Positions 39,535 to 47,067 of a stretch of DNA of 64,000 nt are shown here, in pieces (position 1 is the first letter of the stretch; each line of letters begins with the position of its first letter). The notes below the pieces were generated by a model. The model did no database searches and had not been told where the DNA came from. It saw only the letters and a program-made list of their open reading frames with translations. The stretch comes from Escherichia coli (lineage in GTDB: Bacteria > Pseudomonadota > Gammaproteobacteria > Enterobacterales > Enterobacteriaceae). Location: assembly GCF_003334785.1 (NCBI RefSeq), contig NZ_QOWV01000013.1; one strand, written 5' to 3'. Both the position numbers and the translations under genes were made by a program.

Positions 39535-39765
39535 TGCCGGATGCGGCGCGAGCGCCTTATCCGGCCTACGGGTCGGCAACAGTTGTAGGCCTGATAAGAC
39601 GCGACAGCGTCGCATCAGGCATTGATTGCCGGATGCGGCACAAGTGCCTTATCCGGCCTACAGGTCGGCAATAGTTGTAGGCCTGATAAGACGCGACAGC
39701 GTCGCATCAGGCATTGATTGCCGGATGCGGCGCGAGCGCCTTATCCGGCCTACGGGTCGTGCATC
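39535..39765. repeat. tandem BIME cluster (about five REP palindromes in alternating orientation; about 95-bp unit repeated about 2.5 times)
   Basis: Repeated gccggatgcggcgcgagcgccttatccggcctac / gtaggcctgataagacgcgacagcgtcgcatcaggca units between rhaA and rhaD. Confidence 0.85.
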
Positions 39766-39796: not shown

Positions 39797-40621
39797 ATGC
39801 AAAACATTACTCAGTCCTGGTTTGTCCAGGGAATGATCAAAGCCACCACCGACGCCTGGCTGAAAGGCTGGGATGAGCGCAACGGCGGCAACCTGACGCT
39901 ACGCCTGGATGACGCCGATATCGCACCATATCACGACAATTTCCACCAACAACCGCGCTATATCCCGCTCAGCCAGCCCATGCCTTTACTGGCAAATACA
40001 CCGTTTATTGTCACCGGCTCGGGCAAATTCTTCCGTAACGTCCAGCTTGATCCTGCGGCTAACTTAGGCATCGTAAAAGTCGACAGCGACGGCGCGGGCT
40101 ACCACATTCTTTGGGGGTTAACCAACGAAGCCGTCCCCACTTCCGAACTTCCGGCTCACTTCCTTTCCCACTGCGAGCGCATTAAAGCCACCAACGGCAA
40201 AGATCGGGTGATCATGCACTGCCACGCCACCAACCTGATCGCCCTCACCTATGTACTTGAAAACGACACCGCGGTCTTCACTCGCCAACTGTGGGAAGGC
40301 AGCACCGAGTGTCTGGTGGTATTCCCGGATGGCGTTGGCATTTTGCCGTGGATGGTGCCCGGCACGGACGAAATCGGCCAGGCGACCGCACAAGAGATGC
40401 AAAAACATTCGCTGGTGTTGTGGCCCTTCCACGGCGTCTTCGGCAGCGGACCGACGCTGGATGAAACCTTCGGTTTAATCGACACCGCAGAAAAATCAGC
40501 ACAAGTATTAGTGAAGGTTTATTCGATGGGCGGCATGAAACAGACCATCAGCCGTGAAGAGTTGATAGCGCTCGGCAAGCGTTTCGGCGTTACGCCACTC
40601 GCCAGTGCGCTGGCGCTGTAA
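39797..40621 (+). CDS. rhaD: rhamnulose-1-phosphate aldolase
   Basis: Track ORF 39626..40621 reads through the BIME; 274-aa RhaD from internal [33 protein letters not shown]. Confidence 0.94.
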
Positions 40622-40630
40622 GGAGCAAAC

Positions 40631-40945
40631 ATGATCCGCAAAGCCTTTGTCATGCAGGTAAACCCCGACGCCCACGAAGAGTATCAGCGTCGGCATAATC
40701 CCATCTGGCCAGAACTGGAAGCAGTGCTGAAATCTCACGGTGCGCATAACTACGCCATCTATCTCGACAAAGCGCGTAATCTGCTGTTTGCCATGGTAGA
40801 GATTGAATCTGAAGAACGCTGGAATGCGGTTGCCAGCACTGATGTTTGCCAACGTTGGTGGAAATATATGACCGATGTTATGCCCGCTAACCCGGATAAC
40901 AGCCCGGTGAGTAGCGAGCTGCAAGAAGTGTTTTACCTGCCGTAA
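40631..40945 (+). CDS. rhaM: L-rhamnose mutarotase
   Basis: ORF track 104 aa [47 protein letters not shown]... Confidence 0.93.
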
Positions 40946-41245
40946 TTGCCCAATGTGCCAGAGATGCCTCCGGCACAATATTTTAAATTTCGATTTGAAA
41001 AATTAAACATATTACATCTCCCGGTAAGTTATATTTCCCTGATACATTGTGAGTAAATCACAAAAATAATGAATAACCCATTAATGATTCATGTGGTTTA
41101 TTTAAATAACCATTATGTGCATTACTCCGCAAATCTGACCTTTCACTCTGTCTCAAATTGTCATTGTTTACCGACATATCGCCTCTCATCACTTAATCGC
41201 TCCACCATTACAATTGATTAAAATATATTTTATGGAGTCCGATTA

Positions 41246-41692
41246 ATGGCAGCTCTTACTGCAAGCTGTATTGACCTGAATATTCAGGGCAATGGCGCTT
41301 ATTCCGTTCTGAAGCAGTTGGCGACAATAGCGTTACAAAACGGTTTTATCACCGACTCACACCAGTTCCTGCAAACCCTGCTGCTGCGCGAAAAAATGCA
41401 CTCTACTGGATTTGGTTCCGGTGTCGCCGTGCCGCACGGTAAAAGCGCCTGCGTTAAACAACCGTTCGTATTATTCGCCCGCAAAGCGCAGGCTATTGAC
41501 TGGAAAGCCAGCGATGGCGAAGACGTCAATTGCTGGATCTGCCTCGGCGTGCCGCAAAGCGGCGAAGAGGATCAGGTCAAAATCATCGGCACACTGTGTC
41601 GCAAAATTATTCACAAGGAATTTATTCATCAACTGCAACAGGGCGATACCGACCAGGTGCTTGCCTTGTTAAATCAAACCCTCAGCTCATAA
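41246..41692 (+). CDS. frvA: PTS fructose-like EIIA component FrvA
   Basis: ORF track 148 aa; EIIA(Fru/Mtl/Ntr)-type sequence with His in GVAVPHGKS. Confidence 0.9.
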   Translation: MAALTASCIDLNIQGNGAYSVLKQLATIALQNGFITDSHQFLQTLLLREKMHSTGFGSGVAVPHGKSACVKQPFVLFARKAQAIDWKASDGEDVNCWICLGVPQSGEEDQVKIIGTLCRKIIHKEFIHQLQQGDTDQVLALLNQTLSS

Positions 41693-41702
41693 GGAAGTGG
41701 CG

Positions 41703-43154
41703 ATGGAGTCATCCTTACGTATTGTCGCGATCACCAACTGCCCCGCCGGGATCGCTCACACCTACATGGTGGCGGAAGCCCTGGAACAGAAAGCCCGTTC
41801 TCTCGGTCATACCATAAAAGTGGAAACTCAAGGGTCCAGTGGCGTTGAAAACCGCTTATCCAGCGAAGAGATTGCCGCTGCCGATTACGTCATTCTCGCT
41901 ACCGGGCGTGGCCTGAGCGGTGATGATCGCGCGCGGTTTGCCGGGAAGAAAGTTTATGAGATTGCCATCTCCCAGGCGTTGAAAAATATCGACCAGATTT
42001 TCAGCGAATTACCGACAAACTCGCAGCTTTTTGCCGCAGATAGCGGCGTGAAGCTTGGCAAACAGGAAGTGCAAAGCGGTAGCGTGATGAGCCACCTGAT
42101 GGCGGGCGTCTCTGCGGCGCTGCCGTTTGTCATCGGCGGTGGTATCCTGGTGGCGCTTGCCAACATGCTGGTGCAGTTCGGTTTGCCGTATACCGATATG
42201 TCGAAAGGCGCGCCGTCGTTTACCTGGGTAGTTGAATCCATCGGTTACCTTGGCTTCACCTTTATGATCCCCATCATGGGCGCTTATATTGCCTCGTCGA
42301 TTGCCGATAAACCGGCTTTCGCTCCGGCGTTTCTGGTTTGCTATCTGGCGAACGACAAAGCGCTGCTCGGCACCCAGTCGGGTGCGGGATTCCTCGGCGC
42401 GGTGGTGCTGGGGCTGGCGATTGGCTATTTCGTCTTCTGGTTCCGCAAAGTGCGCCTTGGCAAAGCATTACAACCGCTGCTCGGTTCAATGCTGATCCCG
42501 TTCGTTACTCTGCTGGTTTTCGGCGTGCTCACTTACTACGTTATCGGGCCGGTGATGTCCGACCTCATGGGCGGGCTGCTCCACTTCCTGAATACCATTC
42601 CTCCATCAATGAAGTTTGCGGCAGCGTTTCTGGTCGGTGCGATGCTGGCGTTCGATATGGGCGGCCCCATCAATAAAACCGCCTGGTTCTTCTGCTTCTC
42701 ACTGCTGGAAAAACACATTTATGACTGGTACGCCATCGTCGGCGTTGTCGCGCTGATGCCGCCCGTCGCGGCGGGTCTTGCGACGTTCATTGCGCCCAAA
42801 CTGTTTACCCGACAGGAAAAAGAGGCTGCCAGTAGTGCCATTGTGGTCGGTGCCACAGTCGCAACCGAACCGGCTATTCCTTACGCTCTGGCAGCTCCGT
42901 TGCCGATGATTACCGCCAATACGCTGGCGGGCGGCATTACCGGCGTGCTGGTGATCGCTTTCGGAATCAAACGTCTGGCACCTGGTTTGGGTATCTTTGA
43001 CCCGCTGATCGGCCTGATGTCGCCGGTGGGTTCGTTTTATCTGGTGCTGGCGATTGGCCTCGCGCTGAACATTTCATTCATTATCGTCCTGAAAGGATTG
43101 TGGTTACGCCGCAAAGCGAAAGCCGCGCAACAGGAGCTTGTCCATGAACATTGA
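41703..43154 (+). CDS. frvB: PTS fructose-like EIIBC component FrvB
   Basis: Track ORF 41697..43154 (GTG); 483 aa from MESSLRIVAITNCPAGIAHTYMVAEALEQ (EIIB Cys-Pro) plus polytopic EIIC. Confidence 0.9.
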   Translation: MESSLRIVAITNCPAGIAHTYMVAEALEQKARSLGHTIKVETQGSSGVENRLSSEEIAAADYVILATGRGLSGDDRARFAGKKVYEIAISQALKNIDQIFSELPTNSQLFAADSGVKLGKQEVQSGSVMSHLMAGVSAALPFVIGGGILVALANMLVQFGLPYTDMSKGAPSFTWVVESIGYLGFTFMIPIMGAYIASSIADKPAFAPAFLVCYLANDKALLGTQSGAGFLGAVVLGLAIGYFVFWFRKVRLGKALQPLLGSMLIPFVTLLVFGVLTYYVIGPVMSDLMGGLLHFLNTIPPSMKFAAAFLVGAMLAFDMGGPINKTAWFFCFSLLEKHIYDWYAIVGVVALMPPVAAGLATFIAPKLFTRQEKEAASSAIVVGATVATEPAIPYALAAPLPMITANTLAGGITGVLVIAFGIKRLAPGLGIFDPLIGLMSPVGSFYLVLAIGLALNISFIIVLKGLWLRRKAKAAQQELVHEH

Positions 43155-44214
43155 GTTACTGCAACAGTTGTGCGAAGCCAGCGCCGTCAGCGGCGATGAA
43201 CAGGAAGTTCGCGACATTCTGATAAACACGCTGGAACCTTGCGTGAATGAAATCACCTTCGATGGTCTGGGCAGCTTTGTTGCCCGTAAGGGGAATAAAG
43301 GTCCAAAAGTTGCCGTTGTCGGACATATGGATGAAGTCGGCTTTATGGTCACCCACATCGACGAGAGCGGTTTTCTGCGTTTTACCACCATTGGCGGCTG
43401 GTGGAATCAGTCGATGCTCAACCACCGGGTAACCATACGCACACACAAGGGAGTGAAAATCCCTGGTGTGATTGGTTCCGTCGCGCCTCATGCGTTAACG
43501 GAAAAGCAAAAGCAACAACCGCTGTCATTTGATGAGATGTTCATTGATATTGGCGCGAACAGTCGCGAAGAGGTGGAAAAGCGCGGCGTGGAAATTGGTA
43601 ATTTTATTAGCCCGGAAGCCAATTTTGCCTGCTGGGGCGAAGATAAAGTGGTCGGCAAGGCGTTGGATAACCGCATCGGCTGCGCAATGATGGCTGAACT
43701 ATTGCAGACGGTGAATAATCCCGAAATTACGCTGTATGGCGTTGGCAGTGTGGAAGAAGAAGTTGGGCTACGCGGGGCGCAAACCTCGGCGGAACACATT
43801 AAACCGGACGTCGTGATCGTGTTGGATACCGCCGTAGCGGGCGATGTTCCGGGCATTGATAACATTAAATACCCGCTGAAACTGGGCCAGGGGCCGGGGC
43901 TGATGCTGTTTGACAAGCGCTACTTCCCCAACCAGAAACTGGTAGCAGCGTTAAAAAGCTGTGCCGCACATAACGATTTACCGCTGCAATTTTCCACCAT
44001 GAAAACCGGTGCGACGGATGGCGGGCGCTACAACGTGATGGGCGGCGGGCGTCCGGTTGTCGCGCTGTGTCTGCCAACTCGTTATCTGCACGCCAACAGC
44101 GGTATGATTTCAAAAGCCGATTACGAAGCTCTGCTCACGCTGATACGGGGTTTTCTGACGACCTTAACTGCGGAGAAAGTCAACGCGTTTAGCCAGTTCC
44201 GTCAGGTGGATTAA
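43144..44214 (+). CDS. frvX: M42-family aminopeptidase/endoglucanase-like protein FrvX
   Basis: Track ORF 43138..44214; 356 aa from MNIELLQQLCEASAVSGDEQEVRDILINTLEP; overlaps frvB 3' end. Confidence 0.9.
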   Translation: MNIELLQQLCEASAVSGDEQEVRDILINTLEPCVNEITFDGLGSFVARKGNKGPKVAVVGHMDEVGFMVTHIDESGFLRFTTIGGWWNQSMLNHRVTIRTHKGVKIPGVIGSVAPHALTEKQKQQPLSFDEMFIDIGANSREEVEKRGVEIGNFISPEANFACWGEDKVVGKALDNRIGCAMMAELLQTVNNPEITLYGVGSVEEEVGLRGAQTSAEHIKPDVVIVLDTAVAGDVPGIDNIKYPLKLGQGPGLMLFDKRYFPNQKLVAALKSCAAHNDLPLQFSTMKTGATDGGRYNVMGGGRPVVALCLPTRYLHANSGMISKADYEALLTLIRGFLTTLTAEKVNAFSQFRQVD

Positions 44215-45962
44215 TGCTAAACGAACGCCAGTTAAAGATTGTCGATCTGCTGGAGCAACAGCCGCGCACGCCTGGCGAGCTGGCGCAACAGACTGGCGTT
44301 TCAGGCAGGACCATCCTGCGTGATATTGACTATCTCAACTTCACCCTTAACGGCAAAGCCCGCATTTTCGCCAGTGGCAGTGCGGGCTATCAGCTGGAAA
44401 TCTTCGAGCGCCGCAGCTTTTTTCAGTTGCTGCAAAAGCACGATAACGACGATCGGCTGCTGGCGCTGTTATTACTGAATACTTTCACTCCCCGTGCGCA
44501 ACTCGCCTCGGCGCTTAATTTGCCAGAAACGTGGGTAGCAGAGCGTCTGCCCCGGTTAAAACAGCGTTATGAACGCACTTGTTGCCTGGCCAGCCGCCCT
44601 GGTTTGGGCCATTTCATTGATGAGACAGAAGAGAAACGCGTTATCTTGCTGGCGAACTTGCTGCGCAAAGATCCGTTTTTAATTCCGCTGGCGGGCATAA
44701 CACGAGACAACCTTCAGCATTTATCCACGGCCTGCGACAACCAACACCGCTGGCCGCTCATGCAGGGTGATTATCTCTCCAGCCTGATTCTGGCGATTTA
44801 CGCCCTGCGTAATCAACTGACCGATGAGTGGCCGCAATATCCCGGTGACGAGATAAAACAAATCGTTGAACATAGCGGTCTGTTTCTTGGTGATAACGCT
44901 GTAAGAACCCTGACGGGTTTGATAGAGAAACAGCATCAGCAAGCGCAGGTAATTTCAGCCGATAATGTGCAGGGGTTGCTGCAAAGGGTGCCGGGCATCG
45001 CGTCATTGAATATTATTGATGCGCAGCTGGTTGAGAATATTACCGGGCATTTATTACGTTGCCTTGCCGCACCAGTGTGGATTGCTGAGCACCGCCAGAG
45101 CAGCATGAATAACCTGAAAGCCGCCTGGCCTGCGGCCTTTGATATGAGTCTGCACTTTATTACGCTACTGCGTGAACAGCTCGATATTCCCCTTTTCGAC
45201 AGCGATCTGATCGGTTTGTATTTTGCCTGTGCGCTGGAGCGGCATCAAAACGAACGCCAGCCGATCATTTTGCTCTCGGACCAGAACGCGATTGCCACTA
45301 TTAATCAGCTCGCCATTGAGCGCGATGTTTTAAATTGTCGGGTAATTATTGCCCGTAGCTTAAGCGAACTTGTTGCCATTCGCGAAGAGATTGAGCCGTT
45401 ATTGATCATTAACAACAGCCATTATTTACTGGATGACGCGGTAAATAATTACATCACCGTAAAAAATATCATTACGGCTGCCGGTATCGAACAAATAAAA
45501 CATTTTCTGGCGACGGCATTTATTCGCCAACAGCCGGAGCGTTTTTTCTCTGCCCCCGGAAGTTTTCATTATTCGAATGTACGCGGTGAAAGCTGGCAAC
45601 ATATTACCCGGCAAATTTGTGCGCAATTAGTCGCACAACACCATATTACCGCCGATGAAGCACAACGCATCATCGCCCGCGAAGGCGAAGGTGAAAACCT
45701 GATTGTTAATCGCCTCGCCATCCCACATTGCTGGAGCGAACAGGAGCGACGTTTTCGTGGATTTTTTATTACCCTCGCCCAACCAGTTGAGGTGAATAAC
45801 GAAGTCATTAACCATGTCTTGATCGCCTGCGCCGCCGCCGATGCGCGTCATGAGCTAAAAATATTTAGCTATCTGGCAAGCATATTGTGTCAGCATCCGG
45901 CGGAGATTATTGCCGGGTTAACAGGATATGAGGCATTTATGGAGTTACTTCACAAGGGGTGA
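44214..45962 (+). CDS. frvR: transcriptional regulator FrvR (N-terminal HTH with PTS-regulatory and EIIA-like domains)
   Basis: ORF track 582 aa MLNERQLKIVDLLEQQPRTPGELAQQTGVSGRTILRDIDYLNF... Confidence 0.88.
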   Translation: MLNERQLKIVDLLEQQPRTPGELAQQTGVSGRTILRDIDYLNFTLNGKARIFASGSAGYQLEIFERRSFFQLLQKHDNDDRLLALLLLNTFTPRAQLASALNLPETWVAERLPRLKQRYERTCCLASRPGLGHFIDETEEKRVILLANLLRKDPFLIPLAGITRDNLQHLSTACDNQHRWPLMQGDYLSSLILAIYALRNQLTDEWPQYPGDEIKQIVEHSGLFLGDNAVRTLTGLIEKQHQQAQVISADNVQGLLQRVPGIASLNIIDAQLVENITGHLLRCLAAPVWIAEHRQSSMNNLKAAWPAAFDMSLHFITLLREQLDIPLFDSDLIGLYFACALERHQNERQPIILLSDQNAIATINQLAIERDVLNCRVIIARSLSELVAIREEIEPLLIINNSHYLLDDAVNNYITVKNIITAAGIEQIKHFLATAFIRQQPERFFSAPGSFHYSNVRGESWQHITRQICAQLVAQHHITADEAQRIIAREGEGENLIVNRLAIPHCWSEQERRFRGFFITLAQPVEVNNEVINHVLIACAAADARHELKIFSYLASILCQHPAEIIAGLTGYEAFMELLHKG

Positions 45963-46011
45963 ACTGTGTCGGATGCGCCGCATCCGACACTGCATTTATC
46001 ATCAAAAACGT

Positions 46012-47067
46012 TTAACGCAGGCTATTATAGTCATCAACCATTTCGTTGTACTCGCGTAATGCTCTCGGGAAAGAGTCTTCGACCATCCAGCTTGAGTTTG
46101 CGTCCTGAAGTTGCTCTTTATCCCAGTCAGAGTACGGGACTTTATCTCTGATGCGGCGAACGTATTTTTTAGCCTCGAGTTGATACTGGCCTGCCGAATT
46201 AATAAACGAGAAATTCATGCCGCCTTTATCCGCTTCTTTGGCCTGCGCCACTAGCGTTTCCAGTTCAGACACTTTCTTCATTGCCGCTTCTGCATCAAAC
46301 TTATCTTGCGATATCAGGTTATTAATTTGTTTCGCTGAAATCATGACTGCCAGAGAGTAGTAGTGGAATGTTTTCCCTTCTCTTTCTTCAATATTTTTCA
46401 GTTCCGCAAGCTGACGCTTATCATTAATTTCCTGAATCGCCGCATGATAAGATTCGGCTACAGGTTCAAAGGCTTCCAGATTTTTTAAGAATGTCTGGTG
46501 CAGCGTTTTCCCTTTCGCAAACGCATCGTCTTTATAATTTTCCTGGGTGTAATATTTATCCATTTCGTTAATGGTATTACCCAACGCCACGGCAGCATCG
46601 ATATAACTCACCGCCACGCCATCAATTGGTTGCAGCGCAGGCGTTAACGCCACAGCACTTTTTACGCCTTTTTCACACTCAGCGAGGTTGGATTCACTAA
46701 TGCCGTAGATGCCATAAACAGTACGCTCTTCACCGGTAGGCCCCTGTTTAAAATCTTTCAGCCAGTCAGCATAACGCGCCAGACTGCGCTGTACCGGGAT
46801 CTGTAACTTGTTGTAGCACTTGATATAGACATCCATTTTTTCGTCGAAAACCGCTTGTTCATCGACCACCGGTTGCGCAGGTGTTTCAGGTTTAGCTTCT
46901 GCTTTTGCAACGGGAGCTTCAGTAGGTTTCGCTTCAGGAGCTGGTGCGGCAGGTTGACTATTGGCAGGCGGGAGCGTTTCTGTTTCGGCTTTTTTATCAT
47001 CACAACCCGTCAGACCGAGGGACATGATGGCGACTATAATAGCGGAAGATAATAAATTCCTTTTCAT
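46012..47067 (-). CDS. yiiG: YiiG, DUF3829-family lipoprotein
   Basis: ORF track 351 aa; lipobox MKRNLLSSAIIVAIMSLGLTGC; Ala/Pro/Glu-rich linker. Confidence 0.85.
   Translation of the reverse strand: MKRNLLSSAIIVAIMSLGLTGCDDKKAETETLPPANSQPAAPAPEAKPTEAPVAKAEAKPETPAQPVVDEQAVFDEKMDVYIKCYNKLQIPVQRSLARYADWLKDFKQGPTGEERTVYGIYGISESNLAECEKGVKSAVALTPALQPIDGVAVSYIDAAVALGNTINEMDKYYTQENYKDDAFAKGKTLHQTFLKNLEAFEPVAESYHAAIQEINDKRQLAELKNIEEREGKTFHYYSLAVMISAKQINNLISQDKFDAEAAMKKVSELETLVAQAKEADKGGMNFSFINSAGQYQLEAKKYVRRIRDKVPYSDWDKEQLQDANSSWMVEDSFPRALREYNEMVDDYNSLR

Follow-up and report, generated by a model that had tools for sequence, protein, structure and literature searches.

The frvABXR Operon and Its Genes

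A 64-kb stretch of Escherichia coli DNA (contig NZ_QOWV01000013.1, 64,000 nucleotides, referred to here as the window) carries at positions 41246-45962 the long-annotated frvABXR operon of E. coli K-12, a feature that is already known. A megablast search with window positions 41000-46200 matched MG1655 and further K-12 strains of E. coli at 100% identity, and RefSeq annotates the matching K-12 region as frvA, frvB, frvX, and frvR. The operon joins two components of a phosphoenolpyruvate (PEP)-dependent sugar phosphotransferase system (PTS), an enzyme IIA (EIIA) and an enzyme IIBC (EIIBC), with a peptidase gene and a regulator gene. The original prediction, made from the DNA letters before any database search, had proposed this identity and gene order, which the K-12 match bears out, and gene sizes including a 582-codon FrvR, which agree with the coordinates read off the sequence:

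41246-41692, plus strand: frvA, ATG start, 148 amino acids, Shine-Dalgarno sequence GGAG at 41234-41237
41703-43154, plus strand: frvB, ATG start, 483 amino acids; the open reading frame (ORF) also opens at GTG 41697
43144-44214, plus strand: frvX, ATG start, 356 amino acids, Shine-Dalgarno sequence CAGGAG at 43131-43136
44214-45962, plus strand: frvR, ATG start, 582 amino acids

None of the four genes has an internal stop codon. The overlaps of about 11 bp between frvB and frvX and 1 bp between frvX and frvR, which had also been predicted, are exact: the first occupies 43144-43154 (11 bp), and in the second the two genes share only the A of TAATG at 44214. The Salmonella, Klebsiella, and Citrobacter orthologues have both overlaps, and those of Enterobacter and Buttiauxella have the 11-bp one. 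Since they recur across genera, the overlaps are conserved features rather than an accident of one start-codon choice or annotation, which supports the suggested translational coupling of frvB, frvX, and frvR.

FrvA and FrvB, the PTS Components

FrvA is a PTS EIIA of the fructose/mannitol type (PTS_EIIA_2), scoring 289.9 bits against NCBIfam NF007389 (cut-off 151) and 146.6 bits against TIGR00848 (cut-off 103.5). Its phosphorylatable His64 lies in the motif GVAVPHGK and is kept in six orthologues, including those of Listeria and Stoquefichus. FrvB is an EIIBC of the fructose family (NCBIfam NF008493, 1034 bits, cut-off 806; TIGR01427, 196 bits, cut-off 157.55), with its active-site Cys13 in NCPAGIAHT, matching the EIIB motif CP(A/T)GIAHT. 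Both C13 and the DMGGPINK motif of FrvB are invariant in an alignment that reaches down to 35% identity. Judging from these motifs, the phosphorelay residues of FrvA and FrvB are intact. Of the genes in the cassette, frvB is the most conserved, with 82-94% amino acid identity and a ratio of non-synonymous to synonymous substitution rates (dN/dS) of 0.04-0.07 across genera.

In the searchable full-text literature we found no functional study of frv, no paper defining its substrate, and no report of PEP-dependent uptake or phosphorylation of a defined sugar by Frv, in agreement with the original prediction that no substrate has been published. Matches to the frv names were gene lists or uses of frvX as a random negative-control plasmid, and the FrvR and FrvA names in papers on Pseudomonas and Listeria are unrelated to E. 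coli frv. A 2023 review still lists frvA and frvB as “putative, fructose-like.”

FrvX, an M42 Metallopeptidase

FrvX matches Pfam PF05343 (Peptidase_M42) at E=1.9e-102 over residues 43-333, the sole Pfam family detected, and NCBIfam NF007367 with 843.6 bits (cut-off 569). Its matches in the PDB include 1vhe, YsdC of Bacillus subtilis (E=1e-86), and 1y0r, the archaeal TET aminopeptidase PhTET2 (E=4e-67). The predicted metal ligands H61, D175, E206, D228, and H316 and the catalytic E205 of FrvX, which also has the conserved Asp D63, map residue by residue in a phmmer alignment to H68, D182, E213, D235, H323, and E212 of PhTET2, of which we take all but E212 to be metal ligands from the structure papers. 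E212 is named in a published study of M42 enzymes, whose sequence pattern FrvX also fits (PMC3511314). By sequence, FrvX is a bona fide M42 dinuclear metallo-aminopeptidase. It shares the fold family, the dinuclear site, and the catalytic Glu with the TET/M42 aminopeptidases PhTET2, SpPepA, TmPep1050, CelM, and B. subtilis YsdC; these are viewed as general peptide-trimming machines, whereas FrvX is tied to a transporter operon by coding overlap.

The original prediction had likened FrvX to M42 aminopeptidases or to cellulase-like enzymes. The first likeness stands, as inspection of the active site by alignment found the full set of metal-binding and catalytic residues. The second does not: the cellulase-like label is an obsolete historical misannotation of CelM-type M42 enzymes, which are aminopeptidases. 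No cellulase activity could be measured for CelM and TmPep1050, both of which are Co2+-dependent leucine aminopeptidases, and CelM resembles none of the CAZy families (PMC3511314). On these data we reject FrvX as a cellulase; together with the M42-only Pfam match, they also argue against a glycoside hydrolase.

A broader version of the same idea is that FrvX does not act as a peptidase in vivo, and instead hydrolyzes some other bond in a phosphorylated sugar derivative, as a glycosidase, deacylase, or phosphosugar amidase. Its place in the operon does mirror that of the phospho-glycosidases of other PTS operons, such as MngB beside MngA, and its N-terminus is weakly similar to M20-type deacylases (NCBIfam), in addition to the old endoglucanase-like annotations of the family. 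Nevertheless, FrvX holds the full aminopeptidase catalytic set, Pfam finds Peptidase_M42 only, and the relatives once regarded as cellulases turned out to be clear aminopeptidases, so we consider a non-peptidase role very improbable.

FrvR, a Regulator with PTS Domains

Pfam recognizes only two domains in FrvR, HTH_11 (E=8e-10, residues 5-60) and PTS_EIIA_2 (E=3e-13, residues 455-560), and the approximately 350 residues between them have no Pfam domain. We describe the protein from an AlphaFold (AF2) model built on an alignment of 20 family members (mean predicted local distance difference test score, pLDDT, 84), in which the following units are predicted, “PRD-like” referring to the PTS regulation domain (PRD):

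FrvR residues 1-63: winged helix-turn-helix (wHTH)
FrvR residues 79-135: second wHTH
FrvR residues 139-343: two helical PRD-like bundles
FrvR residues 349-440: alpha/beta EIIB-like domain
FrvR residues 450-582: EIIA(Mtl/Ntr)-type domain, with His505 in AIPHCW

The top Foldseek matches of the model were MgaSpn (5way), AtxA (4r6i), and the Enterococcus Mga-family protein 3sqn, over about 480-500 columns; the helical bundles align with the PRD region of all three, and the C-terminus matches EIIA-Mtl and EIIA-Ntr structures. Two histidines, H279 in the second bundle and H505 at the EIIA active-site position, are invariant in enterobacterial FrvR and are both kept in Listeria FrvR at 35% identity, H279 being the only conserved His in the helical region. 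FrvR scored 31.9 bits against the NCBIfam model NF053736 (AcpB/EbpR/MafR), far from its cut-off of 130 and through the N-terminus only, and in the model its relation to the Mga/AtxA virulence regulators is at the level of the fold only.

The order of HTH, second wHTH, two helical bundles, and EIIB-like domain is common to FrvR, the MtlR/LicR/ManR activators of Firmicutes, and Mga/AtxA, and the terminal EIIA-Mtl domain is common to FrvR and the MtlR class. FrvR differs from the MtlR/LicR class in its gamma-proteobacterial host, and two further differences count against MtlR-like control. Pfam finds no PRD in FrvR even at E<=10, and the EIIB-like domain has no conserved Cys: the otherwise invariant C375 is lost in Listeria, and Ser/Asp occupies the P-loop position that follows strand 1. 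In a distant Frv-type locus (L019), the regulator in the role of FrvR does carry canonical Pfam PRDs. Based on the model, an MtlR/LicR-class domain order with PRDs too divergent for Pfam is partly supported; FrvR may thus work like the MtlR type, of which it is no proven member.

The Upstream Control Region and a Candidate Operator

The spacer between rhaM and frvA is 300 bp long and AT-rich (33% G+C). When the regions upstream of frvA from seven genera were aligned, conservation was poor except in three blocks, which in the window are:

41116-41131, plus strand: CRP-like site TGTGC-N6-CCGCA, resembling the consensus TGTGA-N6-TCACA
41159-41176, palindromic: TGTCA-N8-CGACA, candidate FrvR operator, centered 78.5 nt upstream of the frvA ATG
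41209-41214, plus strand: -10-like hexamer TACAAT, with no good -35

Among these, the palindrome is the most informative. It is the sole match in the 64-kb window. All 14 Frv-clade loci examined have a palindrome of this form (TGTCA-N8/9-TGACA, with YGACA as the right arm) in the 300 bp preceding frvA; they span two phyla and include three Listeria species, Candidatus Stoquefichus, and a Gram-positive-like contig. As a background, 1.16 Mb of non-Frv FruA-type loci yielded three strict matches, or 0.0008 per 300 bp. Its center lies 76.5-78.5 nt from the frvA start codon in nine Enterobacteriaceae, and some E. coli lineages have a perfect palindrome with 8-bp arms, TGTCACGA-CT-TCGTGACA. Because the palindrome travels with FrvR across phyla, we read it as the likely operator of FrvR, a prediction from sequence comparison.

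Upstream of frvA in Candidatus Stoquefichus massiliensis (L026:5365-5422) there are two copies of TGTCA-N8-YGACA, 40 bp apart, one of them near-perfect (TGTCATGAATTCATGACA). The pairing hints at cooperative binding of the regulator.

The other two blocks may complete an activator-dependent promoter. The first is conserved as TGTG-N8-CACA in the seven-genus alignment, and its resemblance to the consensus suggests a CRP site. The -10-like block reads TAnAAT in six of the seven genera aligned, and TATATT in Hafnia. A scan for consensus sigma-70 promoters found no full promoter upstream of frvA, which would fit activator dependence.

Conservation, Selection, and Loss of the Cassette

Protein searches and a genome scan placed the frv cassette in at least 10 enterobacterial genera. 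The exact A-B-X-R order, with nothing added, occurs in Salmonella, Klebsiella oxytoca, Citrobacter, Enterobacter, Buttiauxella, and Hafnia, with differing flanking genes. Comparisons with K-12 gave dN/dS of 0.04-0.17 across genera, dS having reached saturation in the most distant pairs. Among E. coli sequences, frvB had a value of 0.013 and the remaining genes 0.04-0.124, at dS of 0.14-0.50. None of the orthologues compared contains a stop codon. These comparisons argue that frvABXR is a self-contained unit that has moved between genomes and is kept by purifying selection rather than decaying, and they contradict its description as a pseudogenized relic.

The locus is nevertheless dispensable in E. 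coli, being absent from about 23% of complete genomes (at least 80% of the region is present in 4187 of 5426). Strain 536 has lost frvABXR and part of yiiG through a single deletion that begins just past the promoter and reaches into yiiG as far as its 3' part. What remains there (L002:8920-9000) is the palindrome, a CTCATCAC block, and the TACAAT box, followed by the 3' part of yiiG; the strain also lacks a 38-bp piece bearing the CRP-like site.

Other signs of variation were seen at the locus. Insertion sequence (IS) elements (the IS4-like ISVsa5, and IS5) lie inside the frv operon of some E. coli strains. The protein database holds large clusters of truncated FrvR of 320-448 amino acids (P0031, P0055, P0090, P0093), perhaps a mixture of fragments from contig ends and genuine pseudogenes. 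Further, in many E. coli lineages a gene for a RafY-type glycoporin of 464 amino acids (Pfam Porin_8, E=1e-154; no name assigned by NCBIfam) lies between rhaM and frvA, divergent from frvA:

L014:3249-4643, minus strand: RafY-type porin
L015:2279-3673, minus strand: RafY-type porin
L002:7186-8580, minus strand: RafY-type porin

Of 5426 complete E. coli genomes, 2557 (about 47%) have this gene at 80% or greater coverage, and it is also found on some plasmids. It is absent from window positions 40946-41245 and from K-12, and none was seen adjoining frv in other genera.

A reader of these losses might regard the K-12 operon as a silent relic, intact in sequence but unexpressed or unused and on its way to being lost. 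The absence from nearly a quarter of genomes, the clean deletion in strain 536 that left the promoter remnant alone, the IS insertions, the common truncated FrvR clusters, and the loss from K-12 of a porin carried by about half of the genomes all fit such a fate, as do the degenerate CRP-like half-site of E. coli and the absence of any reported inducing condition from the searchable literature. Neutral drift, however, would not produce dN/dS values as low as 0.013 for frvB and 0.04-0.12 for the others within E. coli, nor would it be expected to spare every active-site residue along with the operator and the -10 block. We regard the relic as improbable. The original prediction had called the operon cryptic, a word not to be taken as decaying, given the strong purifying selection on all four genes.

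Pairing of M42 Peptidases with PTS Genes in K-12 and Beyond

The three M42 genes located in K-12 (frvX, ypdE, and sgcX) all lie in PTS operons and all encode the complete set of ligands, although YpdE and SgcX are only 30-36% identical to FrvX. The fry and sgc loci (L012:10133-16385 and L013:11528-17073) are, like frv, orphan PTS permease genes joined with a ligand-complete M42 gene. Within fry, ypdE sits in the order fryB-fryC-ypdF-ypdE-fryA; its permease belongs to the fructose family like that of frv, and a second aminopeptidase gene, ypdF, adjoins ypdE, whose product is reportedly characterized as an aminopeptidase. Unlike frv, fry encodes an EI-like protein of its own, and a regulator of the FrvR type is missing from its vicinity. 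In sgc (sgcXBCQAER), sgcX is the first gene, and the operon differs from frv in its galactitol-type EIIC and DeoR regulator.

We searched for relatives outside the Enterobacterales with an exhaustive FrvB profile search, context look-ups, and a genome scan (its first 600 stretches, mostly generic FruA loci and no census). Among the matches listed, the closest non-enterobacterial relatives of FrvB come from Firmicute-like genomes, with the following gene clusters (percentages are identities of the FrvB-type protein):

L025, L102, and L103: Listeria newyorkensis, L. booriae, and L. fleischmannii, respectively; frvA, frvB, M42, a class I/II aminotransferase-fold gene, frvR
L016/L017 (62%): PatB-type lyase, EIIABC, then a FrvX-like M42 with a 4-bp overlap
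L018 (61%): EIIA, EIIBC, PatB lyase, FrvR-like regulator, and a PepV M20 dipeptidase replacing M42
L026, Candidatus Stoquefichus (62%): A, B, PatB, R
L019 (42%): canonical PRD regulator, EIIA, EIIBC, PatB

In L. newyorkensis (L025:7536-13469), FrvB, FrvX, and FrvR are 77, 64, and 35% identical to those of E. coli. That the transporter of these environmental Listeria is so similar to one from another phylum suggests that frv was transferred horizontally between Firmicutes and Enterobacterales. Among the matches listed, a PatB-type gene dependent on pyridoxal phosphate (PLP) is present in all seven non-enterobacterial Frv-clade loci, and a clan-MH peptidase (M42 or M20) in five of them. The PatB C-S lyase assignment is above the NCBIfam cut-off in L018, L019, L025, and L026 and just below it in L016; for L. 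booriae and L. fleischmannii, the aminotransferase-fold genes were assigned from Pfam only. The use of PepV for M42 in L018 is a swap inside one peptidase clan. Enterobacterales cassettes always have M42 and never the PatB lyase.

In L016 (5287-6720), genes for a DagF-like aldolase of the 2-keto-3-deoxy-6-phosphogluconate (KDPG) type and a glycine-rich SFCGS protein precede PatB-EIIABC-M42. Two other candidates were set aside: an EIIC of Lacticaseibacillus sharpeae (51% identity) is an isolated, IS-flanked fragment with uninformative neighbors, and a 371-codon ORF after frvR in Stoquefichus, considered as a peptidase, is transposase-like instead.

The original prediction had called a peptidase inside a sugar PTS operon an unusual combination. 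It does remain unexplained, yet it is not rare, given the linkage of all three located K-12 genes and the extension of the pairing into Firmicutes. The same observations bear on the simplest account of the operon, namely an ordinary fructose-type or simple-hexose PTS whose transcript FrvX shares as a general cytoplasmic aminopeptidase, chemically unlinked to the sugar. FrvA and FrvB indeed score as fructose-family components, and FrvX is closest to B. subtilis YsdC, the gene of which is not known to be PTS-linked. Characterized M42 enzymes, moreover, are broad peptide-trimming aminopeptidases (PMC3511314). Hitch-hiking of this kind would, however, not be expected to yield a repeated association of M42 with PTS across phyla: M42 is retained in every enterobacterial cassette with its coding overlap conserved, the pairing holds in Listeria at 64-77% identity, PepV stands in for M42 in one relative, and the PatB lyase accompanies all Firmicute versions among the matches listed. 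With the linkage in K-12 added, we consider the hexose PTS with an unrelated peptidase rather unlikely.

Proposed Mechanism and Cargo

While the identity of the frv parts is near-certain, what they do together has to be pieced together from the comparisons above. We propose that frvABXR encodes an activator-controlled PTS for an amino-acid-sugar conjugate, and assign the whole chain of the mechanism a probability of roughly 45%. In this proposal, phosphate would pass from enzyme I (EI) and HPr to FrvA and then to FrvB, which would import the cargo, a sugar-amino-acid or sugar-peptide conjugate, and phosphorylate its sugar part. FrvX, translationally coupled to FrvB, would then take the amino-terminal residue or residues off the cargo, and in Firmicutes a PatB-type PLP beta-lyase would eliminate the remaining amino acid. 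No additional dedicated enzymes would then be needed to feed the products into central metabolism, and the small size of the cassette would be explained.

Expression would be controlled by FrvR bound to TGTCA-N8/9-TGACA, about 54 bp upstream of the inferred start site (taken as 7 nt downstream of the -10 hexamer), where FrvR and CRP together may activate a promoter with a weak -35. As in MtlR and LicR, phosphorylation would govern the activity of FrvR, with HPr acting on H279 and the Frv EII components on H505, so that induction would occur only when cargo drains phosphate from FrvA and FrvB.

Two known arrangements resemble parts of this proposal. The E. coli PTS for 2-O-alpha-mannosyl-D-glycerate also combines a fructose-family EII that imports a sugar conjugate (MngA) with a dedicated hydrolase encoded next to it (MngB), and both FrvB (E=1e-75) and FrvA have MngA among their best non-orthologous NCBIfam matches. 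The likeness that we propose has its limits: MngB is a glycosidase and its operon has a GntR-type regulator, whereas frv has a metallopeptidase and a PTS-domain regulator. Similarly, Frv cassettes of Firmicutes have a peptidase (M42 or PepV) alongside a lyase of the PatB/MalY family, an arrangement like that of the dipeptidase-PatB C-S lyase pathways, and malXY pairs a PTS permease with the MalY lyase. The PepV-like protein of L018 also matches NF052477, the NCBIfam model of the Cys-Gly-3M3SH dipeptidase. The likeness to malXY and to the Cys-Gly-3M3SH pathway is one of enzyme families only, and E. coli frv has no PatB gene.

Several observations weigh against this proposal. Its main weakness is the lyase missing from E. 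coli: an enterobacterial cassette without PatB leaves the operon with no means to break a non-amide bond between sugar and amino acid, and the enterobacterial chemistry may therefore differ. The substrate class is read from gene neighborhood only, the co-occurrence counts outside Enterobacterales come from few loci, and two of the seven non-enterobacterial loci among the matches listed have no adjacent peptidase. On the regulatory side, E. coli has a degenerate right half in its CRP-like site, where other genera come closer to the consensus (CCACA/GCACA). The dispensability of the locus, with nearly a quarter of complete E. coli genomes lacking it, points in the same direction. Accepting these points, we give the amino-acid-sugar class of substrate perhaps one chance in three.

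More generally, Frv may represent a PTS class for a glyco-amino acid or short glycopeptide instead of a free sugar, in which a hexose is linked to Cys, Ser, or another amino acid; once the cargo had been phosphorylated during import, a clan-MH peptidase would trim its peptide part, the Firmicute PatB would release sugar phosphate, pyruvate, and ammonia, and FrvR would act at TGTCA-N8/9-TGACA. We offer this generalization tentatively, and consider it doubtful at present. By analogy, the same cargo logic may extend to fry and sgc. As concrete cargo we weighed bacillithiol-like Cys-GlcN compounds, O-mannosyl-serine, S-glycosyl-cysteine, and Amadori products, on chemistry alone, and none was favored.

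Sequences Flanking the Operon

In the window, rhaBADM lies upstream of frvABXR and the convergent yiiG downstream. Between frvR and yiiG there is one further feature:

45966-45990, between the convergent frvR and yiiG: hairpin resembling a repetitive extragenic palindromic (REP) element, 11-bp stem, 3-nt loop, RNAfold -19.4 kcal/mol

The hairpin matches the REP core GCCGGATGCGGCG with one to two mismatches. It has no T-run on its 3' side, and the terminator scan made no call there; an Rfam scan of 40600-46300 gave no match. The spacer between rhaA and rhaD also carries REP sequences, with seven core matches clustered at window positions 39536-39749 in an array like a bacterial interspersed mosaic element (BIME). 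This spacer is about 450 bp in K-12 vs. about 80-175 bp in CMZE063, CH4796, and 536, and the REP array accounts for its length. A long N-terminal extension of rhaD (from 39626) given by the ORF finder passes through the REP repeats and is spurious. In Salmonella (L007:10998-17071), the frv cassette is followed by a sigma-54/PRD activator of the LevR type and a mannose-family PTS with a GH88 gene.

Implications

The operon has been annotated for decades, the gap in knowledge of its substrate is well recognized, and as a sequence feature it is unsurprising. New here, as leads, are the predicted operator, the fold class of FrvR, the Listeria and Firmicute cassettes with PatB, and the M42-PTS linkage of three out of three genes located in K-12. 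These comparative leads make an orphan function directly testable, through the operator, the candidate phosphorylation sites of the regulator, and a narrowed class of substrates. frvABXR is one of the PTS systems that are still orphans in the best-studied of bacteria. Identifying what it carries would close a gap in the E. coli “y-ome” and would explain why M42 peptidases have repeatedly been wired into sugar-transport operons. If the amino-acid-sugar class is right, it would be a new type of nutrient for the PTS, relevant to both gut and soil bacteria.

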